Assembly: GCA_977020255.1 (NCBI GenBank)
Contig: CDROCS010001542.1
Span: forward strand, 124,001-188,000
From: Obrimoposthia wandeli
Taxonomy: Eukaryota
Direction: 5' to 3'
Length of the DNA stretch: 64,000 nt
Positions 4,456 to 61,450 of the stretch are shown here, piece by piece. Both the position numbers and the translations under genes were made by a program. The number at the start of each line of letters is the position of its first letter. Position 1 is the first letter of the stretch. The notes beneath the pieces are model-generated. The model saw only the letters and a program-made list of their open reading frames with translations, ran no database searches and had not been told where the DNA came from.

Positions 4456-5007
4456 TGTTGGGGTTTCTATATGAAACTTATAGATCCTCTTGAATGCGGA
4501 GGGCCCCAACGTGAGTTCTATAGAAGCAGGTCTTAGGGATGGTTGTGGCCTACTTAATGTTATAGTTGCCTGTCTCAATGCTTATCTGAAGGTGTTTGTT
4601 TTTTGATGTCTCTTAATCTGAAGGGTTTAGAACAATGCTTTCTAATGTAGGAAATCGTTTATTGTTAACACACTAGACTAAAACAAAACAATACGTTTAC
4701 GTACGTATTTCTAAAAAGTTGTAGTAAAATTCCTAAGACTTCTGAAAGTCTCTACACCAGTGGGGATGAACCACGTATCGATTTTAGGTTTTAGGGTTGG
4801 TTGACGCTAGAGTCTTCACTCTAAAATTGCGGCAAGTTCGCAGAGTGTTGCTCTAAAGTATAAGTAGTTTGCCGAGCTGTTGCTCTAACACGGGATGAAG
4901 TTCAGTAGAGTTGCTGCTCTAATTTATAGAGTCTTTCCGAAATTTCACTTTAATTACTAGATAAAAGTTTCCTCAGTAATTTAACAAATTCCAATACAAA
5001 TGTTTTA

Positions 5008-5225
5008 GTAAAATTTACGCGGTATTTTAACAATTTTTAATTCAAAGGCTTTACTAAAATGTACTCGGTATTTTAACAATTTTTAATTCAAAGACTTTAC
5101 TAAAATGTACTCGGTATTTTAACAATTTTTAATTCAAAGGCTTTACTAAAATGTACTCAGTATCTCAACAATTCTTTAATTCAAAGGCTTTACTAAAATG
5201 TACTCAGTATCTCAACAATCTTTAC
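5008..5225. repeat. ~46-bp tandem array in 3' LTR (~5 copies; ~12 copies at 26128-26660 in 5' LTR)
   Basis: Unit aaaatgtactcggtattttaacaatttttaattcaaagactttact counted directly. Confidence 0.9.
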
Positions 5226-5483
5226 TCTTTGTCGTGTGCGGCTCACCTTCCAATCTGCAGACAATTCCGGAGTGCAAGATCCGTGCGATGCGCTGTCCGC
5301 TTGCTAGTTCGGTAACGCAGTAGAGAGTTGTCGGATAGATGGCTCGATCCGAATCCTTTCTAGTAATTCGAATAATTCTGTTGGAAATTTTCGTGATTTA
5401 CCTCCTAGTTTCTTCTGTCTTTCTTCTAACGACTCTCGAAATTGGCGAGAGGAAAACTGCATGATTGAACTGCAAGACTGGAA

Positions 5484-5750
5484 ACTGCTAGATTTTCTGG
5501 TTCTCTGCAACAATGATTTTTCTCGTCTCGAAACTTGTCTGATGGCGAACTGCTTCTCGGAATTGGTGAACTGCTAGACTGAAACTGCTAGATTTCCTGG
5601 TTCTCTGCAACAATGATTTCTTTCGGCTCGAACTTGTCTGATGGCGAACTGCTTCTCGGAATTGGTGAACTGCTAGACTGAAACTGCTAGATTTCCTGGT
5701 TCTCTGCAACAATGATTTCTTTCGGCTCGAACTTGTCTGATGGCGAACTG
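5484..5750. repeat. ~99-bp tandem array in 3' LTR (~3 copies; ~2 in 5' LTR at ~26921-27085)
   Basis: actgctagattt..tggttctctgcaacaatgattt recurs at 5484, 5584 and 5683. Confidence 0.85.
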
Positions 5751-6218
5751 CGAATAACGGTAAGTGTGTTTGGCTTTATATTAAATTACCTCGTCAGTTG
5801 TCTCCCGTCTTCAATCGGTTCTGCGACAATTCTCCTGATTGATATTCTTCTGCTTCGCACTGTGGATAGCGGTAATTTAATTTGTGTGTCTCGATAATTT
5901 TACCTTTTCAGTTGTCTCCTGATCTGGTTCTGCTGGCGCGACGGTGATGGCTCGATTACGATGACTGTTGCTGCTGTGTTGCTGCTGCGACACTGTGGGA
6001 ACTTGTTGCGGCGCTGTGGAAATCTGTCCAAATATGACAGTTATTCTACTAATGACTTTTACTTACTTTGATGCTGTTTGATTGCTTGGCTGCAGCTGTT
6101 TTGGCTCCCACGCTATTTGGTAATTTATTCTTCGTCAATTAATTGATTGATTCGTTTATTTCTCGTTTTCTTATTTCTTGATTAATTCTTTGGGGCCCTT
6201 TAATTTAATTTCAACCTC

Positions 6219-6337
6219 CTTATATATAACACATTGAACATGACCTTTCAAGGTCCTAATATTTAATTTGCCTTTTACTCTCATCAATTTATTTTAAATA
6301 TTATTTTCTATTTAGTTTTATAACCTTGCTTTCAAGG
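6219..6337 (-). promoter_or_regulatory. Putative LTR (U3) promoter: TATA-like box plus two conserved short palindromes
   Basis: Element-sense TATATAAG at 6219-6228, preceded by GGACCTTGAAAGGTCA (6241-6256) and CCTTGAAAGCAAGG (6324-6337); same order and similar spacing in LTRs at 29900-30035 and 59321-59440. Confidence 0.55.
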
Positions 6338-6622
6338 ATTTTATTTTTATATAAATTAGATTAATTATTTAAATTTTATCAAATCCTAATCCTAACATAT
6401 CTCGGGGGTTCTAAAAAAGTTACGTCCCCGGAACATATCGATTTTACTTTGATTTTAAGTTCATCCCTACTAATTCAAGCATTCAACTCAACAAACATGC
6501 CCAATATTTAACAAAAGTCGGTATAGATTTTTTAGGAAAAATTCAGACGCAGTCACAAATTATTCAAATTTGTATTCTATACACAATAAAAATGTAGGAC
6601 ACGGATAAAGGGATGGATTAGG

Positions 6623-7141
6623 TTAATCAATTATGTCCGGCATGTTCTGATCGTCCAGGAAGAGCATAACTTGCTCCAGGAGCAGGTCCGGAAAGGACGG
6701 AATGTCCCCGATGTATAAGGCCGTCTGCTGTTCAGGGTTCAGATGTGGGCTTTCGACAATTAAGTCAAAGTCTGAGCCGTACAGCCGATGATTTTCGATC
6801 CAGAACCGTCTGGCCTGCTGCCACGAGCGGCAGTCGCGGCTAGACCGCCACCGTTCGCGGATGGTAATTTGCACGTCTCGACGGCGCGCCAGGCATACGG
6901 AGCATCTACAGTGTTGTCCGCCAATGCAGGTTGCCAGAGAGCGATTGCCCTTTAGACGTCCTCGGCACATGAGCGCCCATTCTGAGAAGGGGGTGCGGCA
7001 CATTGGGCAAGTGATGTGCCCTGCAGATAGGGCTAGGGATCTGGCCCACTTGTACAGGCACGGCTCGTGGAATTTGTGACCACACCCGGCAGGTTTTGCC
7101 GAAGCTTGCCGGATGGTCTCGAGGCAGATTGAGCAAATCAT
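6623..7141 (-). CDS. Element-borne RING-H2 protein 3 (172 aa; putative E3 ligase)
   Basis: ATG at 7141 directly after gtgcag; C-x2-C...C-x-H-x2-H-x2-C...C-x2-C (CSIC..GCGHKFHEPC..CPMC); intact ORF. The ORF track's TTG start at 7186 is probably not the real start. Confidence 0.85.
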   Translation of the reverse strand: MICSICLETIRQASAKPAGCGHKFHEPCLYKWARSLALSAGHITCPMCRTPFSEWALMCRGRLKGNRSLATCIGGQHCRCSVCLARRRDVQITIRERWRSSRDCRSWQQARRFWIENHRLYGSDFDLIVESPHLNPEQQTALYIGDIPSFPDLLLEQVMLFLDDQNMPDIID

Positions 7142-7492
7142 CTGCACAATAATTACTTTTTTAACTTGGGGTTCAACTGGGTTCAATATTAACTTATGAA
7201 TTTAATATTTTAATTTTAATATCATAAGCCTTAGTATTCCAATCCTACCGAGTTCTGTCTTGATTTTAGGCATGTTTTTCACATTCATACTAAGCATAAA
7301 AATTGTCTTTTGGAGTTTCAGTATAATAATTACAATTTCAAATAAACAACATACATAAAAATGGTAACGGTCATTTTACAGTTTCACAAGATTGTACAAT
7401 TATGATTACAATTATGGTAGCTAATTTATCGCGTTATGCGATACACAGGGGTAGTTCATGATGTCACGTTTTAAGTCAAAAGTTACCTTCGG

Positions 7493-7798
7493 TTACTGCT
7501 GAGTGTTGGGCTGGCCTGTGCGTCGCTCCTCCACGCAGAACGAACACCAGCAGTCGCAGATGTTCTTCCAGCAGTGTACAATGGGTACCACTGCTTGGAG
7601 GCTGTCCCGGTTGTAGACATAGTGCACCGAGAAGGTTGCTCTGCACATCGGGCAGTTTGGGTAGTCGAGGGGATTGTTGTTGTTGGCGATTGGGATCCAC
7701 GTCTCGAGGCATTCGACGTGGAACTGGTGGTCGCAGTTGTTGGGTTTGGTGTAGAGGTCCACGATGTTCTCGTAGCAGATGGAACATTCTCCAGACAT
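7493..7798 (-). CDS. Element-borne RING-H2 protein 2 (101 aa)
   Basis: CSIC..NCDHQFHVEC..CPMC plus C-terminal CWKNICDCWCSFC; intact. Confidence 0.88.
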   Translation of the reverse strand: MSGECSICYENIVDLYTKPNNCDHQFHVECLETWIPIANNNNPLDYPNCPMCRATFSVHYVYNRDSLQAVVPIVHCWKNICDCWCSFCVEERRTGQPNTQQ

Positions 7799-7858
7799 TA
7801 CTGTGAGAGGGTTGGTGTTGAATTTGGGCTCGATTGAGGACTGGTGGTTGTGTGATGT

Positions 7859-8158
7859 TTACACAAAAGTGGTCGGATTTTGTCGTTCCGACAGACAGTA
7901 GTAACACCAACACTCTCTGAAATTCTTCCAACAGAATACCACCTGTACATCTACATCCTCTTGGTTGGGTTCTATCATGATGAACTTTGTGAATTGTCTT
8001 CTGCATACAGGGCAACGAGGGTATGTTGGATGTACGAATTCTCCATAAGTTCTGATCCATTTTGATAAACATTCCTCGTGATGTAAATGGTTGCAGTTTT
8101 CGGGTCTTGTTCTTCGTTCGGTTAGATCTTCCAAACATATTGGGCATTCTTCGGACAT
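7859..8158 (-). CDS. Element-borne RING-H2 protein 1 (99 aa), paralog of RING 2
   Basis: CPIC..NCNHLHHEEC..CPVC plus C-terminal CWKNFRECWCYYC; intact. Confidence 0.88.
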   Translation of the reverse strand: MSEECPICLEDLTERRTRPENCNHLHHEECLSKWIRTYGEFVHPTYPRCPVCRRQFTKFIMIEPNQEDVDVQVVFCWKNFRECWCYYCLSERQNPTTFV

Positions 8159-8282: not shown

Positions 8283-11070
8283 TCATGTCTTGATGGGAGG
8301 TGGAGGTAAAGGTCGCAATTCCACTTCCTCCATTGTGGGTGTGTTACAGCATCGCAGTCCTTCGCATTTTCGTCGTATTCTTGGGCATACTTGACTGCCT
8401 TTCACGCACACGACTGTCAATAGGACCACTGCTGTTGACACTACTGCCATTCCAATTAGAGCATTGACCGCTGTTATTCCGCTGTCTGACGATTGATAAT
8501 CGTATTTCATTTTGTTGTTTGTCGGTTTGAATGACGTTTCCATTGGTGTTGATCGGTTTCCATGTATTATGTCCGATTTTCTAATAACTCGCGGATTTGG
8601 GTATTTTGTTTCCGGTCTAACAGGTATTATTAATTGAGATTGGAAATGATGTTTGGGATCTAGTGGAATCGTTCCTTTCACTCTTGTCCTCTTAATGATT
8701 GTACTTTGGTTTCTGGGATTGAGCTCTTTTCCTTTCACTTCTGCCTTTGTTATGACTACTTTTGGCTTCTCGGAATGGCGTTTACTTCCGTTTACCTTTG
8801 CCTTCTTTTTGATTATGATTTGCATTTTGGAATGACGTTTACTTCCTTTCACCTTTTCCTTTTTTATGATCTTGATTGGTTTTCCGGAAATGATTTTCCT
8901 GGGTTTAATACTTATACCGAGTCCACGGAATCGACGTGTCTGGTATCTTAGGGTTATGTAGAATATTTCACCTGTTATTACCATGATTATGGTAGTGGTC
9001 TCTCTAGCATTGCTGGGAATTCAGTTACATAGACATTCTGCATCAAAATGTGGTATTAACATTTGGTTTTGAATTTCGAATCTGATTCCACCATCTGGAT
9101 TGGGACACGCCACTGTTGCCTGGTCAGTTTCTAACAATCTGAAGAATATTCTAACGGAATTCCACACGGTTTTACGTCGTCTACCTGTGATCATAATCCT
9201 GTCGACAACTTTCCATATGCGCTCATCTCTAGGCAATATTAATGACTTTGTTCGGATACTTTGAATGATCCGTTTCCTCTTTGATATCGTTATCCGTAGG
9301 TATAACACCCTTTCATGATATAATAATATCAGTCGGTAGTAAGGTGTATGTTGGTCAATCTTTATTCTGACCTGTCAGATGACATACAATTTCTGATCGA
9401 CATTGTCGGTTGCTGACGTTTGTAGGTGAATGTCTACTACGTGATTTGTTTTTAGTAGAGGAATTTCTATGTATAACGCACGTATTGTATCTTGTCTCCA
9501 TTTACTGATCATGATCTCATAACCAGCCTCGGTCGTGGTGATTTGCATGATCAGCATGATTCCGATGATCGTCCGGTTCCGAATCTCAGGAACTTCTCTG
9601 GAATAACTCAAGTTACTCATATAGTACGGTCTTTCCTCGATATGTTCATATATCGTTGGCTGGTACTCTGGTGCTGGTTCATTTAGGAATGCTGGTCTTG
9701 GTATACTTGTGTTGAATTTTTGTAAATTCATTTGACCTGCTTGTCTTGCGAGATCATGACGTTTCTTTTTTGATCTCAACTCTATCTTTGTACAACAAAA
9801 CAAGATGAGTAATATTAATATTATAAATCCAATGATCAATGCCAGTATTGGATTAACCAATTCTAGAATACCATAACGTATTGCTGGTATCCCTTTACTC
9901 TTGATGGTTAATATTTTAAATTTATGTACACTTTGGTTGGACATGTCACTGAGAAGTACTATTTTAGTTTGTCCAAATGTGTAATCTTCACATGTGACAA
10001 CACTAACTCCATAATGTCCATTAAGTGTTTTCATTTCGGTCGCTGGGACTATACACATTCGTCCTGGACATCCTTTCACACACATGATCATCACGGCTCT
10101 ACTGTGAGACGTCTTGATTATTTCTAGGGTGTTGTCTAGATTTCTCAAATGTAAATTATATTCGGATAGTGTCATCAATTCAGCTTTACTGGTTGGAATG
10201 GCTTGTAGTACCAATCCAATTACTACTCCGTAGATCAATCCTTGTGCAACAGTGCACAGGGCCTTGATTGTCCTTTTGCAAAGGGTTTTGATTATCATTC
10301 GTTTGAGAGATATCTGTTTCTGGTTAGGTCGTTTTGTTGTCTGTCGTTGTTTTGACATTTCTTCGATTCCAGTTTTTCCGATAATCAACTGTACCTGTTT
10401 ACCTTGTATCATCAACTTTCCGAATCCATTTTTGGCGGACAAGCATGTTTTATGTCCTTCCATCGTTTCGATTATCACTCTCTTGCTTCCATACTCACGT
10501 GTTTTGATGACATCGCCGTTGAATATATACGTCGTACCTTTTGTATCTGCATCTTTTTTTATCTCCTTTACAATTCGTTTTCTTCGCATGCATCCGGCGA
10601 ACGTTGCTGATATTCGGTCAAGTGTGCGCTGTCGGTCAACTTCGTAGTCCATTCGGAATTGATTCAGTACTCTGTTTTGTGGATAAAATATCGCTTCATT
10701 CACTATGTTATCCTCTATACTTTCGTCTAGATACACAAGTACTTGGTTTGTTGGTCCATTGGGTCTCTTCATTTTCACAAACTGGAATCTTTTACTATCG
10801 GTTCTCATAGATGGGAGACATTTTCGGATAACCCACACATCAATTAGTCCTATCAACACTAATAGCATTATCAGTGCCGGTGTATTGTACTGTATGATGT
10901 AGTTGTTGATTTCTTTGAACCATGAACTATTTCCGTGGTTGGAGCCTATCTCTTGTGCTCCCGTTATCGGCATTAGACAACTTAACAAGCCTAGTGCTAG
11001 CAATCTTTGGTATTGATAGCTGGGCACTGTTGTTGTGGCTTCATTTGTTTCTCGTTGTTGCTTCCTCTTT
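8283..11070 (-). pseudogene. C-terminal membrane-protein cassette of polyprotein (repeated signal-peptide-like and TM segments), function unknown
   Basis: Hydrophobic segments RLLALGLLSCLMPITGA, ALIMLLVLIGLIDVWVI, LIYGVVIGLVLQAIPTSKA, ILALIIGFIILILLILFCC, IIGIMLIMQITTTEA, ALIGMAVVSTAVVLLTVVCV; ORFs 9375-11213, 9021-9308 and 8283-8984 are one frame separated by TGA codons. Confidence 0.65.
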
Positions 11071-11599: not shown

Positions 11600-12010
11600 G
11601 AGTTGGTAATTTGACAATTGTCCCAAAAAATTAAGGTTTGGGTTCGCAATACTTCTTCTTTCCTGCAGGTATTTCAGCGCTTCTAGTACCTGCATTCGTC
11701 TAGTCTTTATTAGATACGCCAATACTAGGGTTGCTGATCGGGAGATTCCTTTCTGACAATGTACCAACACTTTTCCTTGGTTTTGGAGTTCTCTGTGAAG
11801 TATCTCGTTTGTTTCTACGAACCATTCGAGAAGATTAGCCTCCATTGAGGTTTTTACTCTTGATGTCATAGCTCTGATCGTCTGATATTGCGATTTGTGA
11901 TTCATTGTAACATTAATCACGTATGTTATCCTTTGTTCCAACAGTTTCTTTTCGTCTGTTGCGTCTTCCACATTTCCGAGGTATAACTTACCTGGAATGA
12001 TCTCACTCAT
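11600..12010 (-). CDS. Dual-specificity protein phosphatase domain (VH1/MKP-like), active-site motif intact
   Basis: SEIIPGKLYLGN...VLVHCQKGISRSATLVLAYL...EALKYLQERRSIANPNLNFLGQL; HCxxGxSRS at 11735-11761. Confidence 0.93.
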
Positions 12011-12370: not shown

Positions 12371-14734
12371 CTAAGGGTATTCTGGTATGTCTGTCTGAAC
12401 TGAAATTAATGAAGGGGTTAGAATAATTGAATTGACTGGTCCTGCGTATCTGTGAATCGGATACGGTATTACACTATCTTTAAGTATCTCAACTTGGAAC
12501 TGTGCTCCATAGCACATGACAATTGTTTCCAATTTACCCATGATGGACAATACATCAAAATAGGTGACATTCAGCTTAGATATCGGTGTTTTCGCATAAT
12601 TAATTAAATTGACTCGTATCTCGGTTGATGACGGCCATCGATTTTTTAGTAAAATTATAATTTCGTCGTTTATCGATGTAATCACACTTGGCGCGAATGA
12701 TACTATTTCGGCATGATATTTTGGTTGGATTGAGGTTGTCACTTGTTCTCGGATCATATTGATTCTTTGTGGTTTATTTTTAGCTTCCCACTTCCGGTAT
12801 CCGCTGTCAATGCGTAACTCTGCCGTTGCTTTAATGATTTTATTGTTTGTTACTTCCGGTTGGGTTGGCGAATGAAATCCTTCTATTACGCTCAACCTTA
12901 CAGATACTTCCGTTTGATCTGTGTTTAATTGGTGAGATTCCGGTATACTACATACAATGGTCTTTCCGTCAAAGAATTTGGTGTCCATCTGACAGATTAT
13001 CTTTTCAGTGTCAGCGTCAATTAAATGAACTCTCATGATATCTCTTTGCCCATGTGAATTACGTAATACCATTATCACATCGTGGTATTCTTGTTTGAGT
13101 CTTTTTGGTGTACCATGAAGTATGTGACCACCGGCCGGTTCTTTTTCTTCCTGACTGGCTAGTCCTGCTTCAGTACTGTCATAGTTCTGCCATGCAACTA
13201 TGTTTGGTGTCAATGTGATTTCGATTATCACTTTCTCAGTCGTAAATACATTGGAGTTTTGATGTAGTTCTGCGACTAATGTATTTCCGTCGTAGTATGA
13301 CACTCTAAGTTCGCACAGAAATTCGTTTGTTAGTGCATCTTTCACAATAACTTCTTTCGCCACATCTGTTGGTTGTGTTCTTTCGAAAACAACTATTATC
13401 TCTTCGTCTTCTTCTAATATCTCTTGTGGTGCGATGTGTCGGATTACTTCTTTTTCCTCTTGGTGTTTCATTCTGAGCATACCAATTCTCGCTGGTTTTT
13501 TCTTGCTACCACTTGTCATCATATTTATGTAGTTTCGATCACTTACCATTCGTGTCAGTTTAATGGTATTGGTATTCGGCTTCAACTTCTGTGATCTTAA
13601 CTCATATCGTGACGCGTTATCTTTATTTGGTACTAATTTACATCGATTTGCATGTACAATCATCGGTTCCTTGTTCCGATTCTCTTCGTTGATTACTTTC
13701 AAATTTGTTGAGGTTGTCTGGATCACCTTGTATCGTCCTTTGTATGGTCTATGAAGTTTAAACGATAGACCTGGTTCGATGACTGGATAAAATATAATCA
13801 CTTGATCTCCGACTCTAAATTCATGTGGTTTTGCCTTTTTGTCATATTGTTCCTTGTAACCTTCTTGATTGAATTTCAGTTTCAATCCTGCTTTAGTCCA
13901 AGCATCTTGCAATCTTTCTTTCATAACGACAATGTATTGTTCAGTTTCTAGATACTGAGATGTTGGTTCGGTCCACTCCAGATCCATTGGCATATTGTTC
14001 TGTCTGAGATACATCAGATAGAATGGTGTGTGACCCGTCGCCTCTCGAACTGAATTCCTGTAAGCATATAAACATGAAGGTAAATATTTATCCCAATCCT
14101 CTTGCTTGTCTGAGCAATAGGATTGTACCATCATACATAAAGTTTTATTAAACCTTTCTACTAGACCATCGGTTTGTGGGTGATATGGTGAAGTTTGTAA
14201 CTTCATGATTCCGAATATCTTCGATACTGCTTTTATTACTTCTCCGGTGAAGTTCTTACCTTGATCCGTTAACAACTTTCTAGGCACTCCGTATCGAAAT
14301 ATTATCTCTTCCACTAAGATCTGCGCTATTGTTTCAGCCTTCTGGTTTTGCATGGGATATGCTTCTACCCATCTCGTCATGTAGTCCGTAAATACTATGA
14401 TGTACTTGTTTCCTTTACTTGATTCTCTCAATGGTCCCAATATATATATCGCTGTGAATTCCATTGGTGCCAAGGGAACTGGCATTGGTTTCAGTAGAAC
14501 TTTAGTACGAGTTCCAGTGTCTTTTCTGGTTAAACATACTCTACATTGTTTACACCATTGTTTTATGTCGTCTTCCATACCATCCCAATGGTACTTCTCT
14601 TTGATTCTGGCTATTGTCTTTCGTCCTGACAGATGTCCTCCTAGTGTTCCATCGTGGTACTGGATCATCACTGCTGTTTTCAATGACTTCGGAATTACTA
14701 CCACTATCTTTCCGACATTGTTAACAATATACAA
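12371..14734 (-). pseudogene. pol: Integrase (HHCC, D-D35-E, GPY-like) plus long C-terminal extension
   Basis: H..GGH..GRKT...CKQC; catalytic D1 mutated to Y (AIYILGP, codon 14444-14446); LTDQGKNF; GLVERFNKTL; PYKGRY. Confidence 0.93.
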
Positions 14735-14755
14735 GATTCCTTCTTTTATCGAGTA

Positions 14756-16230
14756 TTATTTCGTCATTTCATCGTTTAGATCTCCTTTCACCAACAGTTC
14801 TTTGATTAGACTCAGTTCTTCATCTTCTTTCTGTTCTTTGATGATCTCTTTGTCTATTTTACCCGTCTTCAGCAAAATCGTTAATAGATTTGCTTCTCCT
14901 TTTTGGTCGTTGGTTTCATCTTGTTCTTCTTCTGGAATTATGTTTCCTTTCTCGTCTACATTTGTCAACCTCGACAAACAATCTGCGTTGCCATTCGACT
15001 TTCCGGTTCTATAACGGATTTCTAGGTCAAATTCGGCCAATTTTAGAAACCATCTGTTTAATCTACTCATCTCATCTCTATGTTTATACAAGAACTGTAG
15101 TGGTTTGTGATCTGTATATAGGAATACTTTTTGTCCTAGCAAGTAGTGTCTGTACTGTCTACATGAATACACTATGGCTAGACATTCCTTTTCAATAACA
15201 GAGTATCCTCTTTCGGCTCTGTTTAATCCTCTACTCGCATACGCGATGACGTGTTCTCTTCCTTCATCATCCTCTTGTCCCAATACTGCTCCTACAGCAT
15301 AGTTACTTGCATCTGTCATTAGTATGAATTGTCGGTTTATATCTGGAAACGCTAATATTGGTGCTTTTATCAGTCTTTCTTTTAAATGTTCGAACGCTTG
15401 TTGTGCTTCTTCTTCCCATATGAACTTCTCATCTTTCCTCGTCAACTTTCTCAACGGTGTTGCTATATCTGAAAAATGTTCTACAAATCGTCTATAATAG
15501 TTCGCAAGACCTAAAAAACTATGTATTTCCTTAACAGTCTTTGGCGCTAAATGCGCTTTTACTTTGTCGATCTTTGCTGGATCAGGTCGGATGCCTTCTT
15601 TCGATACTATATGTCCTAAATATGTTACTCGCTCTTTGGCCCATTCGCATTTTGTAGGTTTAACTTTTAATTTAGCGTTTTCCAGTCTTTTAAATACAAC
15701 TTCAAGATTTTTTAAATGTTCTTCGAACGTTTTAGAGAATATTATTATGTCATCGATATAAACCATCGTGTTTGCACACGATGCGAGTACAAAATTCATG
15801 CAACGCTGAAATGTTGCTGGAGCTCCTGTCAGTCCGAATGGCATTTTTTCGCATTCGTACAGTCCATCTCCGCAGGAAAAGGCTGTTTTGTGTTTGTCCT
15901 CTTCCTCTATCTCGATTTGCCAGTATCCACTCTGCAAATCCATTGTCGTAAAATAATCTGAATTACCTAATTTATCGAGCATCTCTTCGATTCTAGGTAA
16001 TGGATACACATCTTTTCTTGTGATCTTGTTCAGTTCTCTGAAATCTATACAAAATCCTTCTTTTTTACCAACACCACAGGTGCTGAGAATGGTGAAAAAC
16101 TCGGTCTAATTACTCCTGTTTTAGACATATCTTCAATCTGACTTTTTACTTCATCTTGTAACTGTAATGGTACTCGATATGGTCTTCTTCTGACTACTTT
16201 GTCTTCTGTCAGCGGTATTGTGTGTTTTAT
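14756..16230 (-). pseudogene. pol: Reverse transcriptase and RNase H (Ty3/Gypsy)
   Basis: RRPYRVP...SPFSAPVVLVKKKD / FCIDFRELN (small deletion between them), DLQSGYWQI, MPFGL, YIDD (15749-15760), TDASNYAVGAVL, EKECLAIV, TDHKPL. Confidence 0.96.
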
Positions 16231-16699: not shown

Positions 16700-17030
16700 G
16701 GATCTTGTAAATCGATACTTATCCCTTTGAGTTGTGATAGTACATCCATTCCTAAAATTGTAGGTTCAGGACATTCTTTCATGATTCTAACTGGTATAGT
16801 GATCGTATTACGTCCAATTATAGATGTACATGGTAATATTCCCGTCACTTTTACAGGGTCTCCATTGACCGATACTAAGAATTCATCTGGTTCTGCCATT
16901 GTTCGTTTCTGTTCCTCTGTCAAACAATCTTCACTTACTATCGAAGCTACACCACCTGTATCAATTAAGGCTTTTACTCTTAAATTATTTACTCTAATGA
17001 TAGCTGCTGGTCGCTGTGCTCCATTTATAT
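16700..17030 (-). pseudogene. Retropepsin-type aspartic protease domain 2 (canonical position before RT)
   Basis: RVKALIDTGGVASIVS (D codon at 16962)...SVNGDPVKVTG...ILGMDVL. Confidence 0.88.
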
Positions 17031-17139
17031 TTCCCATGTGGTATATTGTATTTATCGAATTATTAAACTCTGTCGGTCCACTTCCTTTGTTTGGATAGTG
17101 AAATCTAATATTTCTCACTTGTCGATCTATTATCCTTCT

Positions 17140-18100
17140 ACAAATCGGACATGATACCATTTCCTTCGCACATCTCCGACATGTTCTTACATGTCCGCAT
17201 GGTAAAAAGGCAACTTATATTTTGTTGACCATGCAGACTGCGCATTCCGGATCTTCCAGTACGTATTCTAGTTCGTTTATGTACTCTTTCTCTTTTGTTT
17301 CAATTGTACTGTCATCTTTATCTCTCAATAATTCAAAAATTAATCCGTATCCGTTTCGCATAGTTTTTATTTTTAATTCTACCAAATCTCTGATTTTTTC
17401 TGCTTCCTACGGATATAGTCTTCTCACGAATGACACTACCGGTGTGTCTTGTTGATCCAAAATATCTTTCCGTGTGATTTGGTATTCGATTACACATTCG
17501 GTTTTCTGTTCTTTTTGCTTTATTTTGTTTTTAAAAATACAAAATTCATGATGTAAAGTTTTCTTAGGTAACTCAAGAGTATATCTGTCGATAATTCGTT
17601 CTTTTTTACACTTGTGGCATTTAATTACGTATTTACCATCCTTTTTTATAGCAAAAAGTCCCTTTTTTGCCAATTTTTTAAGTCTTGGGTCTTCGAAAGT
17701 TACTTCTCGATATTGTTCGTCACATTCGTTCACTTCTCGCATAACTTCGAATATGTCTTCAATTCGGCTATTTGTTATTACTCTACCTGTTATTAGAGCT
17801 GATTCTCCTTTTGGAATCCCGTCACTGTAATCGAAATCGGGTGCTTTTCCCGTTTGGATTTCTGGTACGTTTGAAGTTTTCAGTTTCAAAAGAAATGGAC
17901 AATTTGGTGCATCTCTTTTATGACGTCTCATTGGGTTTTCATTCTTCTCCCACTTTCTAAAATTTACTCTTCACCATACGCATCGTACTACTTCCTCATG
18001 ACCATAACTACTTGTCGCGTTTAACATTTCTAAACCTGATCTTGCCATTTTACGTGCCATTCCTTTTGAATAGTACAGTTCTAGTGATCTTCGTCTATTT
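17140..18100 (-). pseudogene. Inhibitor-of-apoptosis module: BIR1 (17890-18100), degenerate BIR2 (17535-17715), C3HC4 RING (17140-17244)
   Basis: Repaired BIR1 RCVW[C]KSKFRKWEKNENPMRRHKRDAPNCPFL fits C-x2-C-x16-H-x6-C exactly (TGA at the 2nd Cys, +1 T); BIR2 REVTF..KLAKKGLF..CHKC..HHEFC; RING CAVCMVNKI*VAFLPCGHVRTCRRCAKEMVSCPICR is IAP-type. Confidence 0.88.
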
Positions 18101-18339
18101 TTCTCGATTCTCAAGGGATCTTTTTCTGACAGATTCACATATGTTATTTTCCTCCTCGTCGTAGCTTGTGGTCCGGAGTTTACATCTTTGTAGTGAAGAA
18201 TCGACTTTACTAGCGCTTCCTGTTTCCTATCTTGGTACGGATTTCCCATACGGAACATAGTGTATTTTTCCTTTTCGACTATAGGTCCTCTCAACATTTT
18301 TAACTCTCTCGCTGAACTGTCGTTCTTAAAACTCTTGTT

Positions 18340-18660
18340 GTTTGGTAATATAATTATTCCTTCAAACATCCGTATTACATCCATCCCAATCATGACTGGA
18401 CTACCACAATCTGTGAATATTCTAGCATTTAACTGCAATGCTCTTCCATCGATATTTAACGAACATTTCAGTGTTCCTTCTGACACTACATCTGTACCAT
18501 TCACGTTAACAAATGTCTGTTTTCTAGGACATACTTCTCTTAATTCTTTTGATGACAAGATTTCTTTACTCAGTACTGATACTGCAGATCCAGTATCGAC
18601 TTCGGCAAGATATTCTCTTCTGTTCAGTGTTACTGCTACTTGTGGTGGAGCATTTGGATT
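18340..18660 (-). pseudogene. Retropepsin-type aspartic protease domain 1 (extra copy)
   Basis: EYLAEVDTGSAVSVLS (D codon at 18597)...NVNGTDVVSEG...VMIGMDVI. Confidence 0.87.
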
Positions 18661-18984
18661 CTCATTGGATATCCTAGACTTTAGAATTCTTCTGGAATTA
18701 TCTTTTTTGTCTTTTTCCTCTGCTTGTGGGATCTCACTGTAGTTCACTTTAGGCCATCTTATCATTAAAATGCCTCTCTTGAACTTTTCCTTCTCTTCCT
18801 TTAGTTCCTTCATTGGATATAGGTTTAGCGCCACTTCTTCCTTGTCTGGTAACGGAATCTTTGGTTTTCCTGGTATCTTTGCATATTCTCCTGGGTTATC
18901 ATTATCGTCGTCGTTGTCGTCTCGATAGTTTCTTGGTTCTCGCATCATGGTTCTCGTTTGATGTTGCTTCTTCTTGAGGGCTCG

Positions 18985-20866
18985 CTACTCGTTCTCGTGA
19001 TGATGGTGCATTAGATATTTTGCTAAAAATGGAAAACATCCAATTATAAGTTGCCAGGTGATTCCGGTTATCCTGTATAAACTATACGTAGACAACACCT
19101 GGGCTATAATTACCTGCACAAATTTAATTATAACATAAATACCTATGATACCCGAAAATAATTGTCCTAAAACAAGGAATTTCCCCCACATCTTTCTAAG
19201 TGTCTGATGTGCTGCTTCCTTGAAATGACTTGGCGATAATAACATATCAAAATTCGCATATCTAGCTCCTGGCGGTAATGCTCGATGTACCATCTCCGTA
19301 AGTACTCTGGCCCTTTTTACTGGAAACATTATTTCGTTCCAGGCCGCTTTTAAGTCTTTTTCATTGTACAAACCTGCGTTCTCCATATTTTCTACCGCTT
19401 CGAATTTCATTTTTCCTTTAAGATTCGTCATTTTTATCATCTCTGGAGTTTTCGTTGGCTTTCGGTCAGGTAGCGTTATTCAAAGATCATTCGTCATCTG
19501 ATATTCAGGTGCCATTATATTAGAGCAGCTGATTTCTTTAGTTGGAGTGTCTTTTGGAAGTATCATTCTCGTGATTGGTTCAACAAAGAGTTATTTTAAA
19601 TTATGCGTTACTGCCAATTCACTCGTACATCGGTTTGTTGTTCTCAACTGTACTTCTACTTTATTACACTTGTAAGTATACAATACTTCTCCCATGGTTT
19701 TAGCAAATACTCCTTCATCTAAGGGTAATAATGGTGCTACCATGTCTGGATTTGTAATAGCTAATGCTAACTTTGTTCTTACGATCTCTTTGTTTAGCTG
19801 GCAATCTCTCTCAATCATCATCCGATATAACTGTTCCATTTGCATCAATCCTTTATGATAATAAAAATAAATTTTATTATTAAAATACGTATGTAGCTGC
19901 ATATCTCTAGGTTTTAGCTTGGTTTCTGCCAATGCTATTAATTCTCTGGACAAAACTATTCCAGGATAGTTTGTAGTACTAACAGTCATTCCGCATAGCG
20001 CTTTATTTCTCTTTTTAATAAATATCAATCCTTCTTCTGTTGATGTTGCCATTAACAGTGTAGGTGTCGCCGTCATAGGAATTGATCTTGTTTCATTTTG
20101 AAATCCTTCTCCAACTTTATTATACAGGAACCCTTCTCCATCTTTATTATACAGGAACCCTTTTATTTTATTAAAGCTAATTTCTTTCAAAAATACTAAA
20201 GAGAATTGTTTCGGATTCACGTGATACACAATTGTGGATTCGCCTGTAAAACAAGATGCATCTGTCATTCTACATTCCGGATACTTCATCATTCGTTGTG
20301 TCTTTTTATCAAAATTGGCGGTCCATGTTTGTAATTCGATTTTATAAGTTACGTCCATTACTAACTCTGTTACTTTGGTACCACGCACGTTTTTTTGTTC
20401 CTCCGTCACAAGATCCATCAGGCCATCGTTGTCCTACTCTCGTGACTGTTTCGTATCGTCTCACCCCAACTTTTACATCAGGTTTGTAATTCTTGTCTAT
20501 TTATATTGTTCCTGTTCGAAATGCGTCTTCGCAATCTCTCGGAAAAACCTCATGTGGTTTGTACGGTGTGGTAGGTGTGATTTCCGACATAAAACTTCTA
20601 TGGCCACAATAGAATTCGTGATAACTTGAATGGACTGAACATTCTTTCACTTCTACTTGTATTTTATCAACATCCTGATACACAAAGTAGTTTTCAATAC
20701 CTTTAACTTCTAATTTTGACGGTTGTGATTCTGGACAGTCTTCGCTGTCAAGCAGTGAATACTTTTGTCCCATCTTTGGTATGCTACAGTCGTATGCTAT
20801 CAACCCTGATGCCTGTTGCATTCCCATAAACATTACTAGCATCATCATCATCATCGTTGTGGACAT
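18985..20866 (-). pseudogene. env: Env-like glycoprotein resembling chuvirus/Jingchuvirales (class III) fusion proteins
   Basis: Internal signal MSTTMMMMMLVMFMGMQQASG then LIAYDC (20786-20803), DGSCDG, DCQLNKEI..TKLALA..NPD, MGEVLYTYKC..VEV..R.T..C..EL.V, and C-terminal WGKFLVLGQLFSGIIGIYVIIK..TM; these match remembered chuviral G motifs. Confidence 0.8.
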
Positions 20867-20964
20867 ATTTGGTTGATTGTTTCTTTCTTTCGGACGGTAT
20901 TGTTTATTTTCCCTTTGACGATTCTCGTGACATTGCTCGTCATCGTCTTCGTTCATTTCCACAA

Positions 20965-21360
20965 TGGTTTTAGCGTAGTCACTTAATTTTGCCCAACCTC
21001 CGTTTTCGTCAATTCGTCTCTGCAATACATTCTCGATCAAATACATCGCTTCATTTATTCCTTGTTTGACTTCGTGAGGTTGGCTCGTTCGTTCCGTCAA
21101 TTTGAAACATAGATATGTGATCGCTGTAATTAACTTTTTATTTGTAGTCTGGTTTCCACATAATCTCGCTAAAACTTCACCATCGTAAAATCTATCTATT
21201 GATGCATGGTATACATGATTCGCAGTCATTCTCTTCACTGCAGACATTTGTGATCTGACTGCTTTAGTCAAATTGTCTGTTATATCGGTTGTTTCATCTT
21301 TGTACATTTTGAACAACTTCGGCTTCACTTGCCTGAGAATTCCCGATAGTATATCTTTAC
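20965..21360 (-). CDS. Bcl-2-like helical domain inside the Gag-Env ORF
   Basis: ILRQVKPKLFKMYKDETTDITDNL (BH3/alpha2-3-like), VLARLCGNQTTNKKLITAITY (divergent BH1), LQRRIDENGGWAKL (BH2-like; ENGGW at 20993-21007). Confidence 0.65.
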
Positions 21361-21511
21361 TACTTGGAGCTTCCGAATTCATATCACCTCTGATATCTTC
21401 ATTTCGCTCCGTACTATACTGCTCTAATGACGCTGCTAACTGCCCAATGCTTAGGTGTCTCTCCTCATCAGTCTGAGGTGTAGTTAGAACATTTCGTAAT
21501 ATACTTCCGTC

Positions 21512-21539
21512 CTTTCTAGGTCTTCCAGGTCCTCTTCGA
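21512..21539 (-). other. AT-hook-like motif RRGPGRPRK
   Basis: GRP core flanked by basic residues in ORF 20501-24163. Confidence 0.6.
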
Positions 21540-22044
21540 AAATACTGATACTCAGTTTGATTCTCTCCTGGATCATATGGTTCACCATTATACTGTATCT
21601 CTTGACTTGGTCCTTCTTCATGGCCAATCTCTTCGTTTTGTCGCATCATCTGCTCTGCTTGTCTATCTCTGTATGCAGCATGCCAAATTGGTGAATCCAA
21701 ATCTACAATCTCGGAGATTTCGTCTTCTCCTACTAGTTGGGTTACGTTTTCGTTTTGTCTCACTTGGTTAGCTATATCCGTGACTTCATCTTGTCTGGTT
21801 TGAATTATCTCTGGTTCTGGTGGTACTTCGACCACCGGAGTCGTCAACTCATTTTCTAGTTCCACGTCTTGTAATTCAGCTACGTACGGTTCTGGTGTGG
21901 ATGTCTTGTTCCAAGCTTCAGCTACATCATTATCTCCACTTTCGCTTGAACTGTCTAAAATTTCTATAGGCGTTTTTATCATTTCCAACGCAGAGTTTAA
22001 TATCTCAGTTAATCCTTCATTATCTACTAACTCTTGACGTTCTA

Positions 22045-22270
22045 CAGTAATGACATCAATTTTTTCCTCTAATTCATTTCCTATAGGATATCCGCACTCG
22101 ACTGGTACGTCTTCGTCATCTAGTGATCTTCCTTTATAATGGAATAACATATTCATTCCGTCTATTTCAAGTTTCTCGGCCAACTTTTTCCGAATAGTTT
22201 TCATTGTTTGGTATACGTTAAGTTTTTCATGTATGATCTGTCCGAAAATTAATCGAATCGAAATTTTCAT
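22045..22270 (-). CDS. SUMO/ubiquitin-like domain inside the Gag ORF
   Basis: MKISIRLIFGQ...TMKTIRKKLAEKLEIDGMNMLFHYKGRSLDDEDVPVECG...IDVIT resembles SUMO/Ubl beta-grasp (F.F.G..L.D.DTP...IDV); no C-terminal GG. Confidence 0.6.
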
Positions 22271-22799
22271 CGTTCCTTTTTGGTTTGATCTCTGTATGTA
22301 ACGACCATATCCCTTCAATAATCCTCGTGATACTTCTTTGTAACCCAAGTTATCATGACTATGTTTAACCAATTCTGCTTGCACTTCTTCCAATCTATGC
22401 ACTTTAATTGTTTGCAATTTGGCCAAAACTTCTGGAGCTTCACTCGTTTCATCTAACGGTTGATTCAACGTCTTCTTAGCTTCACTAATTATTTTTTTCA
22501 CATTTTCCATACTCGTAGCATTTCTTGCGACTTCTATGTGATCAGTCATAGGTTGTGCGTTACACGTTTTCTCTATTGGTGTCTCATACGCTTCTAGTAT
22601 TCGGTTCATTAAATCATTCATCTCTTCTCTCGAATGTAGACTTTTTTCGTGTTTCGACAACGTAGATGAATTCGCCATCTTTGTGTGTGGGGAATCTTTA
22701 ATTATTCCCAACATTCGTTCAAATTTACTATCACTATCTTCAAAATCTATTTCGCGTCGAAGCTCGGTCTCGCGATTCCTATCGCTGTCATCGTTTACG

Positions 22800-24822
22800 T
22801 AACTAAAATTTCCTTTCGGTTTCGGCGAACTCTCATGACTATTTGTCTTGTCAATATTATTATTATTATATCTACCGGAATTATTATATCTCTCAGCTCC
22901 TTGCTGTCCTACGTAATTATTGTATCTCTCAGCTCCTTGCTGTCTGTCTGTATAGTTATTGTATCTACCTGGTGACTGTTGTCTATCTGTATACTGATTA
23001 TTCGGTCTCCGTTGCTGCGGAGTATATCCACCACCTCTATTCCATGGCGGGGGTGAATTATATCCTCTATAATTATTTCCAAAATTATTATTACCGAAAT
23101 TATTATTTCCAAATCTGTTAGTTCCGAACTCTTTACTTCTCGTACAGTCTCTCGAATAGTGACCCATTTGTTTACACGTATAACACATTATTCTCCCTCG
23201 AATATCGATCTTATTCTGTTCATCTTCGGACTGCACTCGACGACTATTCTGTCTATTGTCGTAGCGTCCTCTAAAATCATTTCTTCGGAAGTTCGATTCA
23301 AAACCACTTCCTCGATTATTGAATCTTCCGTCACTACTTCCTGTATTATTTCCAAATCGAGAGTCACTTCGCTCTCCTCTGTTTGCGTTGTAATTCCTAT
23401 CGTCCCCTCTCCAAGGTTGGCGATTTCCTGAATTATCTCTACTAAATCTATTCCTGGAATCATCTCTATTTCTATTCCACGAATCATTACTATTTCTACC
23501 TCTTGAATCATCTCGATTCCTGTTCCAAGACTCACTATTATTTCTACCTCTCGAATCATCTCGATTCCTATTTCGGAAATTATCTCTGTTTCCGTTACTG
23601 GATTCATCTCCTTTTTCAAACTTATTTTGTCCATAATTTCGATTCTGAAAATTACTCGGTTCTGTTTTATTCACAAATACCTTTGTCTTATCGTCATCAC
23701 CTGCGGTCATTGCGTAAATTGCCAATGCTGCGTTATTTTTTATATTTTTCTCAATTTCTCTCGCCTTTCGTACGGCGTTATCAAAATCGTTTGTGTCCGA
23801 TACTGCCAATAACACTTTAATATCTTTTTTCAGTCCTCCTCTAAATATGTCTAACAAAACTTCTGCCATTTCATTTTGGTTCCGGTTATTTTCCGCTGCT
23901 TGTGCTTCTGGAGCTACAGGGTTACCTTCTAGATTTATCATTATTCTTCTTGGGTACGCTCTTGCGGCTAAGGTTCTCAGAACATACGCGTATTCATTCA
24001 CGCCTTCGTCATGTTTCTGTTTCCGTTCTCTCATGATTCGCTTGTTTACTTTTGCAAAGTCTCCCAATACCAATTTTCCAATAAAAGCATTTTCCAACGT
24101 TTCCCAATTAAAACGTTCTGCTTCTGTCAAATGTTTATACACTTCAAGTGCTAATCCGGTCAAATGTGCCTGTACACGGACACATTTTCTCTATCGTTCC
24201 ATCCTTGAACATCTGCGCAACTCGAATATTCTGCGAGGAAGTCACAAATACTTTCCTCATCTCCTTTAAACTTTGTAATCTGCAATGATCCCGAAAAGTT
24301 GGGTCTCAACGTCGCATTTAAGGCTAGTGCCAACTGTTCTGCATTCATGTCACCTACATTATTTCCTGCATTGTTATCTGCTTGAGCTCCTGGTTGAGCC
24401 ATATTTTCAACTATATCCTCCTCAACTATTTCTTCAATATTAATCACTTGAACTTCCTCAACCGCTACTGGATTGTCAATTTCAATTTCTTCTGGGTTTT
24501 GAACTTCAATAATATCAATTTCTTCTGGGTTTTGAACTTCAATAATATCAATTTCTTTTGGGTTTATTTCACCAAACAACTCAGTCAGATCAAAACTGTC
24601 GGTTGAAACTGCTGATTGATTTACGTCTCTTTCTGATACGTTTTCTTCGATTCTAGTCTTTTCTATTACTTTGTTATCTGTTTGGGAAACCTGTTCAATT
24701 CGGTTAAATTTATTATTATTTATCTCTTCCTGGGGAATCTGACTTTGTCTTGTAGTATTAAACGCGGGTCCTTTTCTATTATCCGTTGTCTTATCAATTA
24801 TGTATTCGTTTACGATATCAAT
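22800..24822 (-). pseudogene. gag: Gag (acidic leader, capsid-like region, R/D/N-rich nucleocapsid with one CCHC knuckle)
   Basis: First ATG at 24402 (MAQPG..); QITKFKGDEESICDFL..Y...GWNDRE; one-A deletion near 24190; CYTCKQMGHYSRDC at 23144-23185. Confidence 0.9.
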
Positions 24823-25574: not shown

Positions 25575-27722
25575 TGTTGGGGTTTCTATATGAAACTTAT
25601 AGATCCTCTTGAATGCGGAGGGCCCCAACGTGAGTCTATAGAAGCAGGTCTTAGGGATGGTTGTGGCCTACTTAATGTTATAGTTGCCTGTCTCAATGCT
25701 TATCTGAAGGTGTTTGTTTTTTGATGTCTCTTAATCTGAAGGGTTTAGAACAATGCTTTCTAATGTAGGAAATCGTTTATTGTTAACACACTAGACTAAA
25801 ACAAAACAATACGTTTACGTACGTATTTCTAAAAAGTTGTAGTAAAATTCCTAAGACTTCTGAAAGTCTCTACACCAGTGGGGATGAACCACGTATCGAT
25901 TTTAGGTTTTAGGGTTGGTTGACGCTAGAGTCTTCACTCTAAAATTGCGGCAAGTTCGCAGAGTGTTGCTCTAAAGTATAAGTAGTTTGCCGAGCTGTTG
26001 CTCTAACACGGGATGAAGTTCAGTAGAGTTGCTGCTCTAATTTATAGAGTCTTTCCGAAATTTCACTTTAATTACTAGATAAAAGTTTCCTCAGTAATTT
26101 AACAAATTCCAATACAAATGTTTTAGTAAAATTTACGCGGTATTTTAACAATTTTTTAATTCAAATGCTTTAGTAAAATATACTCGGTATTTTAACAATT
26201 TTTAATTCAAAGACTTCAAAATATACTCGGTATTTTAACAATTTTTTAATTCAAAGACTTTACTAAAATGTACTCGGTATTTCAACAATTTTTAATTCAA
26301 AGACTTTAAAATATACTCGGTATTTTAACAATTTTTTAATTCAAAGGCTTTAGTAAAATATACTCGGTATTTTAACAATTTTTTAATTCAAAGACTTTAC
26401 TAAAATGTACTCGGTATTTCAACAATTTTTAATTCAAAGACTTTAAAATATACTCGGTATTTTAACAATTTTTTAATTCAAAGACTTTACTAAAATGTAC
26501 TCGGTATTTTAACAAATTTTAATTCAAAGGCTTTACTAAAATGTACTCAGTATCTCAACAATTCTTTAATTCAAAGGCTTTACTAAAATGTACTCAGTAT
26601 CTCAACAATTCTTTAATTCAAAGGCTTTACTAAAATGTACTCAGTATCTCAACAATCTTTACTCTTTGTCGTGTGCGGCTCACCTTCCAATCTGCAGACA
26701 ATTCCGGAGTGCAAGATCCGTGCGATGCGCTGTCCGCTTGCTGGTTCGGTAGCGCAGTAGAGAGTTGTCGGATAGATGGCTCGATCCGAATCCTTTCTAG
26801 TAATTCGAATAATTCTGTTGAAAATTTTCGTGATTTATCTCCTAGTTTCTTCTGTCTTTCTTCTAACGACTCTCGAAATTGGCGAGAGGAAAACTGCTTG
26901 ATTGAACTGCAAGACTGGAAACTGCTAGATTTTCTGGTTCTCTGCAACAATGATTTTTCTCGTCTCGAAACTTGTCTGATGGCGAACTGCTTCTCGGAAT
27001 TGGCGAACTGCTAGACTGAAACTGCTAGATTTCCTGGTTCTCTGCAACAATGATTTCTTTCGGCTCGAACTTGTCTGATGGCGAACAGCGAATAACGGTA
27101 AGTGTGTTTGGCTTTATATTAAATTACCTCGTCAGTTGTCTCCCGTCTTCAATCGGTTCTGCGACAATTCTCCTGATTGATATTCTTCTGCTTCGCACTG
27201 TGGATAGCGGTAATTTAATTTGTGTGTCTCGATAATTTTACCTTTTCAGTTGTCTCCTGATCTGGTTCTGCTGGCGCGACGGTGATGGCTCGATTACGAT
27301 GACTGTTGCTGCTGTGTTGCTGCTGCGACACTGTGGGAACTTGTTGCGGCGCTGTGGAAATCTGTCCAAATATGACAGTTATTCTACTAATGACTTTTAC
27401 TTACTTTGATGCTGTTTGATTGCTTGGCTGCAGCTGTTTTGGCTCCCACGCTATTTGGTAATTTATTCTTCGTCAATTAATTGATTGATTCGTTTATTTC
27501 TCGTTTTCTTATTTCTTGATTAATTCTTTGGGGCCCTTTAATTTAATTTCAACCTCCTTATATATAACACATTGAACATGACCTTTCAAGGTCCTAATAT
27601 TTAATTTGCCTTTTACTCTCATCAATTTATTTTAAATATTATTTTCTATTTAGTTTTATAACCTTGCTTTCAAGGATTTTATTTTTATATAAATTAGATT
27701 AATTATTTAAATTTTATCAAAT
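25575..27722 (-). repeat. 5' LTR of giant element (last 13 bp displaced to 30098-30110 by nested solo LTR)
   Basis: Matches 4456-6384; continues as aaat-cctaatcctaaca after 30093. Confidence 0.95.
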
Positions 27723-28149
27723 TGTTGGGGTTTCTATACGAAACTTGGTACAGATCCTCTTAATGTGCGGAGGGCCCCAACGTGAGTTCGATTAGAAGCA
27801 GGTCTTAAAGTTGGTCGTGGCCTACTTAGTGTTATGGTTGCCTAATCTCTTGTACTATCTGAAGGTATTTGATTTGGTGTCTCTCTATTTCTGAAGGGTG
27901 CAAAACAACTTGTTCTAATGTAGGAAATTGTTTATTGGTAATTCACGTAATTAAACACAACAATACGTTTATGTACGTATTTCTAAAAAGTATGGTAAAA
28001 TTCCTAAGACTTCTGTAAGTCTCTACAAGAAGTGGGGATGAACCACGTATCGATTTTACGTTCGGGTGATCGAGATTTTAGAGTCGTTCCTCTAACTCAC
28101 GAATAGACTCAAGTTATAGATTTTTCGAATCAATGTGACTTTAATGTCA

Positions 28150-29120: not shown

Positions 29121-29187
29121 GGTGTTTATACCTTTATTGTTTTGACTTGGTATATTGACGATCTCTGGAGATGGTCACTTGACGATC

Positions 29188-60802: not shown

Positions 60803-60810
60803 TATTAAAT

Positions 60811-60829
60811 TGGTGCCCAGAGTGAGGAT
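60811..60829 (+). other. Primer-binding site (elongator tRNA-Met-like)
   Basis: TGGTGCCCAGAGTGAGGAT after the same 8-nt spacer TATTAAAT. Confidence 0.72.
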
Positions 60830-60934
60830 AGCTCGTCGGACACAGCGACTTCACGTAGAATAAGAAAGCAAATTGAGAATAAGTTACAGAAGAAGAAGAT
60901 ATAAGCAAATTGAGATAAAAGAATTGAATAAGTT

Positions 60935-61390: not shown

Positions 61391-61450
61391 TAAATTGATA
61401 TAAGAAATCGTAAAATAAGAATTGTGAAATAAGATAAAAGTAATAAGTAA

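Follow-up and report, generated by a model that had tools for sequence, protein, structure and literature searches.

Does the env gene that lies between gag and protease at this locus share a reading frame with both neighbours, and how would a polyprotein built in this way sit in a membrane? The window (the whole stretch of DNA analysed, 64,000 nucleotides of an Obrimoposthia wandeli contig) holds a long retroelement in which an earlier sequence-only reading had recognised a chuvirus-like class III fusion glycoprotein at this position.

The element and its family frame

The element is a 23.3-kb Ty3/gypsy LTR element on the minus strand (Table 1). Its two LTRs differ by 10 mismatches in 1829 aligned columns, and the closest solved relative of its RT is the Ty3 RT (E = 4.5e-78), which bears out the Gypsy assignment made earlier. 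Neither a target-site duplication nor a tRNA primer-binding site was recognised at the element. The outer end of the 5' LTR adjoins another LTR-like start (27722-28062, 84%). Elsewhere in the window, we observed a second, more diverged copy of the family on the opposite strand (60434-64000, plus strand; LTR and gag, 78-92%), which runs off the window, a Tc1/mariner-like DNA transposon remnant (46037-47627) with 223-nt terminal inverted repeats and matches to DDE_3 and HTH_38, and tandem arrays at 28100-29600 and 59828-60180 with units of 43, 52, and 39 nt.

Table 1. Features of the element, listed in its own reading direction; positions are those of the window.
Feature	Position	Strand	Evidence
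5' LTR (outer end approximate)	25575..27722	-	aligns with 3' LTR
Gag: capsid-like core, one CCHC knuckle (23141-23185)	23141..24402	-	zf-CCHC E 7e-6; window copy has a frameshift near 24190
Ubiquitin-like domain (weak)	22091..22240	-	PF00240 E 0.004, 17.3 bits against a cut-off of 25.4
BCL2-like domain, directly upstream of env	20966..21328	-	PF00452 E 0.04 (weak); model and VIA ranking
Internal signal-peptide-like segment	20804..20866	-	poly-Met core; small residues at -3/-1 before LIAYDC; KD19 1.45
Class III (gB/chuvirus G type) ectodomain	19200..20803	-	window copy: three stops, one frameshift
Membrane-proximal WGKF helix, TM anchor (peak 19149-19093), and weaker second hydrophobic segment	18988..19199	-	KD19 2.32 (anchor) and 1.26 (second segment, copy L017)
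TAG private to the window copy	18985..18987	-	0/29 other copies
Aspartic protease 1	18370..18636	-	PF13975 E 2e-5, slightly below cut-off; DTGS motif
BIR (C-terminal half matched, 17890-17964) and RING (17122-17214)	17122..17964	-	PF00653 E 2e-7; PF13920 E 1e-8
Aspartic protease 2	16723..17016	-	PF13975 E 4e-7; PF00077 E 1e-5
RT, RNase H, and integrase in Ty3/gypsy order	14177..16048	-	Pfam; solved-structure search
Dual-specificity phosphatase in the family frame	11603..11986	-	PF00782 E 1e-32; stop 12373 in 0/24 other copies
3' end of the long frame, hydrophobic segments	8286..11030	-	readable as three signal/ectodomain/anchor modules
Conserved stop ending the long frame	8283..8285	-	present in 24/24 other copies
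Three small separate RING ORFs (8158-7859, 7798-7493, 7141-6623)	6623..8158	-	tandem, before 3' LTR
3' LTR (inner end approximate)	4456..6384	-	aligns with 5' LTR

The env region of the window copy (20866-18988, minus strand) is placed between gag and protease. The gag ORF 20504-24190 (minus strand) shares its frame with the Met at 20866, and a 21-residue hydrophobic stretch lies directly ahead of LIAYDC, which starts at 20803. WGKF and a TM segment at ~19190-19090 (minus strand) are followed by a short tail and then by the TAG at 18985-18987, whose frame is that of the protease ORF 17974-18984. The sequence-only reading had described this LIAYDC start, the cysteine pattern, the WGKF...TM tail, the position upstream of protease, and the frame running through the TAG into protease 1, and we found each of them, the gene order being confirmed by Pfam along the minus strand. 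It did not mention that the window copy of env is interrupted by three stops (20503, 19593, and 19482) and by a frameshift near 20,400, so that gag and pol are in different frames there; its claim that env is in frame with both is thus true of the family and not of this copy. The fusion to Gag through an internal signal was also correct as a fusion, but env follows the BCL2-like domain and not Gag proper. Env has a single N-glycosylation sequon, and a furin-like site is absent. The core of the signal-like segment (20866-20840, minus strand) is an ATG microsatellite encoding a Met run of 2-15 residues over 30 copies.

Every copy was aligned to the window individually. Established site by site across copies and not in one copy, the family frame extends from ~24402 to 8283 (~5,370 codons) and encodes gag, ubiquitin-like, BCL2-like, env, protease, BIR, RING, protease, RT, RNase H, integrase, phosphatase, and membrane modules, in this order. 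The window copy is broken at 16 places, 12 of which are stops, each present in at most about one-eighth of the other copies examined. The stops at 18987 and 19593 occurred in none of 29 other copies, that at 19482 in two, and that at 20503 in three; further downstream, the counts were 0/27 (17973), 0/25 (17409), 3/25 (17217), and 0/24 each for 16695, 14758, 12373, 9377, and 9023. At the frameshift near 24190, the frame was unlike the window's in 23/24 copies; near 20,400, one frame was kept in 27 of the 29 other copies; and the window was contradicted by 23/24 copies near 16050 and by 24/24 near 11250. Because these breaks are private or nearly so, we conclude that the family keeps one frame over this entire length.

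The gag/env junction (21226-20777) was fully open in 17/29 other copies, while 7 had one stop and 5 a frameshift; of the 29 env/protease junctions (19200-18571), 20 were fully open, 6 carried one stop, and 3 a frameshift. No shared stop was found at either junction, the breaks being scattered, and these sister copies settle the env/pol junction as open. Env itself was without a stop in 15/29 other copies. Among the 70 env protein candidates scored, 45 lacked an internal stop, and all 45 lay within frames of 800-3106 aa, longer than env. At position 18986, more than 99% of the contig depth differed from the window in 4/4 runs, which derive from one sample, possibly the assembly's own.

The genome contains at least 70 near-identical copies. 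All 40 DNA candidates scored matched at 94-100% and all 70 protein candidates at 95-100%; since only the best candidates were scored, these counts are lower bounds that lean to well-kept copies. Pairwise pN/pS was 0.27 for env (both halves), 0.22 for gag/Ubl/BCL2, 0.19 for the linker plus protease, and 0.45 for BIR/RING, compared with 0.53 for a non-coding control, a contrast that is indicative only because this sole control spans 36 codons. Private substitutions amounted to 0.56-1.05 per 100 nt over the sampled copies, which have decayed to a similar degree. The copy in the window is dead, and the family to which it belongs is large and young. The LTRs differ by 0.55% and the interior carries 0.78% private substitutions, while plain post-insertion decay predicts ~1.6% between LTRs; LTR conversion or in-trans copying after decay could possibly account for this mismatch.

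Env and its relatives

Three separate stop-to-stop pieces of env each scored above the Pfam cut-off for PF24664 (Monjiviricetes_fusion; E = 3e-14, 5e-30, and 3.5e-27). The open env of L017, a natural copy (626 aa), matched the same family with 312.7 bits (E = 5e-93; cut-off 27 bits). A search among 1.84 billion representatives yielded 1261 relatives at E 0.001, and an alignment of 102 sequences (env and 101 relatives) showed twelve cysteines that are at least 90% conserved. The fold comparisons rest on an AlphaFold model of the L017 env (mean pLDDT 89.9). In Foldseek against BFVD, chuvirus-like glycoproteins ranked first (E = 3e-40, TM up to 0.67); against the PDB, herpes gB was matched with E = 4e-13 and a TM of 0.3-0.4, a low value that is expected when conformations differ. 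VIA placed HSV gB at the top (Z 10.6, rmsd 7.8, 395 aligned), followed by other gBs, thogotovirus Gp, and rhabdovirus G. When solved structures were searched with the env sequence alone, no match was returned, and in a profile search gB occupied 29 of 32 rows, none better than E 0.1. Judged from the profiles and the predicted fold, the identity of env as a class III fusogen of the chuvirus G/herpes gB type is secure. The glycoprotein class named in the sequence-only reading thus stands, and the three counterparts it had pointed to, chuvirus G, herpes gB, and rhabdovirus G, were all recovered as structural matches.

That reading had also likened env to the chuviral G proteins of BEL/Pao elements. 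The Pfam family is the same, but the nearest kin are different. The top env matches (29-42% identity) are polyproteins: among the 14 longer ones scanned, a retroviral protease follows env in the same chain in 10, and RT is also present in 5 of those. The relative P0151 (4844 aa) carries env and then protease in one chain, together with integrase, ankyrin, and seven D[TS]G motifs. We built a quick env tree of 41 rows, comprising 10 top matches, one BEL/Pao-type protein, and 30 random draws from the remainder. The ten top-ranked envs fell on one side of a branch with an SH-aLRT of 100, apart from the 30 free-standing proteins and P0021; two of the ten, P0012 and P0013, are fragments whose polyprotein status is not established. 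P0021, the sole BEL/Pao-type match (DUF5641 then G), is 26% identical and lies outside the group holding this env. The top-match identities and the quick tree thus indicate other gypsy polyproteins, and not the mosquito BEL/Pao elements, as the nearest kin. Another relative, P0006, is an env-protease-RT-integrase polyprotein that its source assigns to a Flavobacteriaceae MAG, under the label of hypothetical protein; it is probably animal DNA placed in a bacterial bin.

Accessory domains and predicted topology

The first gag ATG lies near 24402 in 19/24 other copies, and the Gag core aligns with P0011 74-200, assigned to Retrotrans_gag by Pfam. A model of the BCL2-like domain, built from 5 sequences, had a pLDDT of 65. 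In VIA, rows 1-29 were all Bcl-2 family members (best Z 9.3, rmsd 2.9, 115 aligned), and Foldseek gave mostly Bcl-2 family rows (best E 0.02, none under E 0.001); a sequence search with this stretch gave no Bcl-2 match. The GGW motif was invariant in 5/5 aligned sequences. With a Z that is modest (<13, helical domain), the assignment to the Bcl-2 family is a weak match with which Pfam, the structural ranking, the GGW motif, and the expected position concur. A homologue search with the Ubl/BCL2 region was blank, and this result, like the blank searches with the 3' membrane region described below, implies neither novelty nor absence.

Several D[TS]G motifs per chain occur in relatives (7 in P0151, 6 in P0003, 3 in P0001), suggesting repeated protease duplication in the lineage. 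The spacer between protease and RT, where Burro has a dUTPase-like domain, has no dUTPase-like Pfam match and is conserved in 5 relatives. After integrase, the stretch 13300-12374 (minus strand), with a barely detectable internal repeat, reached a score of 0.80 with IPT/TIG clusters in the Atlas; we treat this as a lead only, and the stretch may hold IPT/TIG-like domains. The phosphatase has an HCQKGISRS active-site motif and a pN/pS of 0.17. It is followed by ~900 codons with hydrophobic segments at 11003, 10883, 10262, 9848, ~9600 (weak, by eye), and 8459, which alternate between signal-like and anchor-like, the anchor-like ones being trailed by basic residues. This 3' membrane region was open in at least 4/24 copies, with a pN/pS of 0.24-0.29, and searches for homologues, Pfam matches, and Atlas matches were each blank. 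The Tyr-rich tail of the second module bears a TxYxxI motif, which we take to be ITSM-like and which may be due to chance. The stops of the separate RING ORFs were found at 7861 and 7495 in 24/24 copies and at 6625 in 18/21.

Hydropathy was computed on the Kyte-Doolittle scale (KD19). Env has a weak segment at 20854-20798 (1.45) and a strong one at 19149-19093 (2.32). In free G proteins, AYDC is preceded by a signal, and in this env LIAYDC is preceded by the weak segment; among 12 relatives with the motif, a segment of KD19 at least 1.6 lies 20-30 residues ahead of it in 8 and falls below 1.6 in 4. The second segment, after the anchor, has a median of 1.38 in polyprotein-type envs (n = 8) and 1.25 in other envs (n = 91), and the anchor has a median of 2.20; the second segment reaches 1.6 in 1/8 of the former and 11% of the latter. 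From hydropathy, a topology with Gag and Pol in the cytosol is plausible.

This Burro-like Ty3/gypsy element has a class III fusogen as its env, read in one family frame from Gag-Ubl-BCL2 to Pol, and we consider it likely that the product is a single ER-threaded polyprotein with Gag and Pol on the cytosolic side. One mRNA would give one polyprotein of ~5,370 residues, the Gag-Ubl-BCL2 part of which would emerge in the cytosol. The internal signal would start ER translocation, signal peptidase would cleave before LIAYDC, and the ectodomain would fold and form its disulfides in the lumen. The TM segment would act as a stop-transfer sequence, keeping the proteases, BIR/RING, RT, RNase H, and integrase cytosolic, and proteases of the element itself would free these cytosolic parts. 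The ratio of Gag, Env, and Pol would be 1:1:1, with no need for splicing or a programmed frameshift. The cleaved env signal may stay as a tail anchor of the BCL2-like domain, and a tail anchor is typical of the Bcl-2 family. HCV core and the E1 signal, according to the available text of PMC5402940, provide an analogy for a cleaved signal that stays on the upstream product. Env would most likely mediate the fusion of enveloped particles with other cells of the same host.

Env might instead be mainly a stand-alone type I membrane protein, made from a spliced or internally started message (poly-Met start), with the fusion merely carrying translation to Pol. Its signal opens with a run of 2-15 Met codons, and the part from 20866 onward has the appearance of an entire free G protein, its ~626 aa matching the length of most free homologues. 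We nevertheless judge this quite unlikely: no splice-acceptor-like tract lies within 600 nt upstream (best 8/15 pyrimidines, element mean 6.1), a free Env with no stop after its tail would still be attached to Pol, and read-through to Pol would pass the same signal and anchor anyway. An Env that ends with two membrane passes would place the downstream chain in the lumen and require Pol to be made by another route. Such an arrangement could draw on the second hydrophobic segment (P0011 reaches 1.71, against the median of 1.38) and on the Gly at 601, conserved in at least 90%. It is highly improbable in our view, given that this segment is much weaker than the anchor, that no other strong hydrophobic segment occurs between it and the protease, and that RT and integrase, by textbook knowledge, must be in the cytosol. 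In the single-pass polyprotein that we favour, the conserved second hydrophobic segment of chuvirus-like G would not cross the membrane, since the fused Pol must be cytosolic.

The TAG at 18985 has almost no claim to be a real env/pol boundary or a read-through signal. In the window copy it does close the env tail, but it is one among the 12 stops of that copy, and its absence from 29/29 other copies refutes the boundary. A broader question is whether the element moves solely inside cells, in which case the Env fold would have been kept not for entry but as a membrane scaffold that supports Gag/Pol assembly at the ER, or budding into the ER. The similar decay of the sampled copies fits a burst in one lineage, and particle data were not found in the accessible portions of the Burro literature (PMC6431247, PMC8532177). 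This explanation is unlikely, however, because the whole ectodomain, and not the anchor alone, is constrained with its cysteine frame kept, and because it is retained across relatives that are only 29-42% alike.

Beyond the preferred single polyprotein, it is possible, and we offer it tentatively, that the 5,370-residue chain threads the ER several times and is cut by host signal peptidase like a flavivirus/hepacivirus polyprotein. Its products would be the fusogen, a tail-anchored BCL2-like protein with env's signal as anchor, and another three type I membrane proteins that belong to no known family; together with the IAP-like BIR/RING, the phosphatase, and the three RING ligases, they would form a large-virus-style kit to control death and signalling of the host cell. 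Should the 3' membrane modules prove to be real proteins, they would represent an undescribed class of retroelement cargo bearing on host cell survival. What most deserves follow-up here is the phosphatase together with the 3' membrane modules.

Comparison with known systems

The placement of env between gag and pol is an already known arrangement, and, being in print, it is not a discovery, contrary to what the sequence-only reading had implied. In the available text of PMC6431247 (2019), Burro (GYPSM1, Burro1-4), a group of planarian giant gypsy-like elements, has env in frame between gag and pol; GAG-ENV-POL elements of the gB type were described by Chary and Hayashi in 2026 from Nematoda, Bryozoa, and Platyhelminthes (PMC13524379, available sections). 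The 2019 review related the Burro env both to the Env of gypsy and to the fusion proteins of baculoviruses and paramyxoviruses, in addition to its mononegavirus matches (PMC6431247). Our fold comparison lends structural support, at the level of a predicted model, to a class III nature of the Burro-type env.

As far as the published description available to us goes (PMC6431247), Burro and this element share one ORF of ~5,000 codons, a CCHC Gag, and the order BCL2, env, PR, in which env continues the frame of BCL2 and leads on to protease (here read site by site across copies); both also have BIR and RING, accessory ORFs, and very many copies. The ubiquitin/SUMO-like domain that precedes BCL2 in Burro may have its counterpart here in the expected place, with a PF00240 match below the cut-off, which would complete the order Ubl, BCL2, env, PR. 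Burro exceeds 30 kb and has two or three knuckles, whereas this element measures 23.3 kb and one knuckle was found. Ankyrin repeats and a MATH domain are listed for Burro1-4 of S. mediterranea in the same text; neither was matched at E 0.01 in the element frames scanned, while ankyrin is present in the relative P0151. We therefore call the element Burro-like and not Burro, the comparison being one with a published description. Two proteases, the phosphatase, and the 3' membrane modules are features of this element that the consulted part of the Burro description does not mention (PMC6431247). The second protease, the phosphatase, and the three 3' signal/anchor modules were likewise not found in the incompletely covered key papers on Burro and gB-type elements, nor was a dual-specificity phosphatase in gypsy polyproteins mentioned in the published literature as far as it was covered. 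A protective effect on stem cells is reported for the BIR/RING region of Burro1 (cited in PMC13465017, partial text), and Burro1 expression is covered in PMC8532177 (partial text).

Anakin, from the accessible text of Dezordi 2020 (PMC7642597), is a chuvirus G in mosquito BEL/Pao elements; it belongs to the same Pfam glycoprotein family as this env but has a BEL/Pao host element, and the RT and integrase found here are Ty3/gypsy and not BEL/Pao. Chuvirus/Monjiviricetes G and herpesvirus gB share with this env the class III fold, a signal before AYDC, the cysteine frame, and the membrane-proximal WG.F helix. They are free type I proteins from genes of their own, and env is 21-27% identical to chuvirus-like proteins and ~10-13% to gB. 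The nematode NERVs come from another host group than this element. They reportedly have a continuous gag-env-pro-pol ORF, and we know of no BCL2/BIR cargo in them. According to Sacco et al. 2022, as cited in the available part of PMC13524379, they are a metavirus with env before pol.

The GAG-ENV-POL HSV/gB-type errantiviruses, in the sections of PMC13524379 at hand, combine a Ty3/gypsy Pol (PR-RT-RH-IN) with a gB-type env before pol, as this element does. Those sections describe gB-type env ectodomains as flanked by two hydrophobic segments, as here, with a furin site that is not always retained, and also tie the gB-type env to a mosquito chuvirus-like gene. They do not discuss single-ORF fusion or cargo domains, and their selection needed intact ORFs, unlike the window copy. 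Six Schmidtea rows of env domain I-II (PMC13524379, supplement 2) carry, by eye, the motifs of this env in order, namely YQ, EC, CG, C..AF.T, G.C.G, C.TG.S, TP, and C...V..TNY.G. This element showed every tested feature of the GAG-ENV-POL gB-type kind, that is, a Ty3/gypsy Pol, the gag-env-pol order between LTRs, and a multicopy state.
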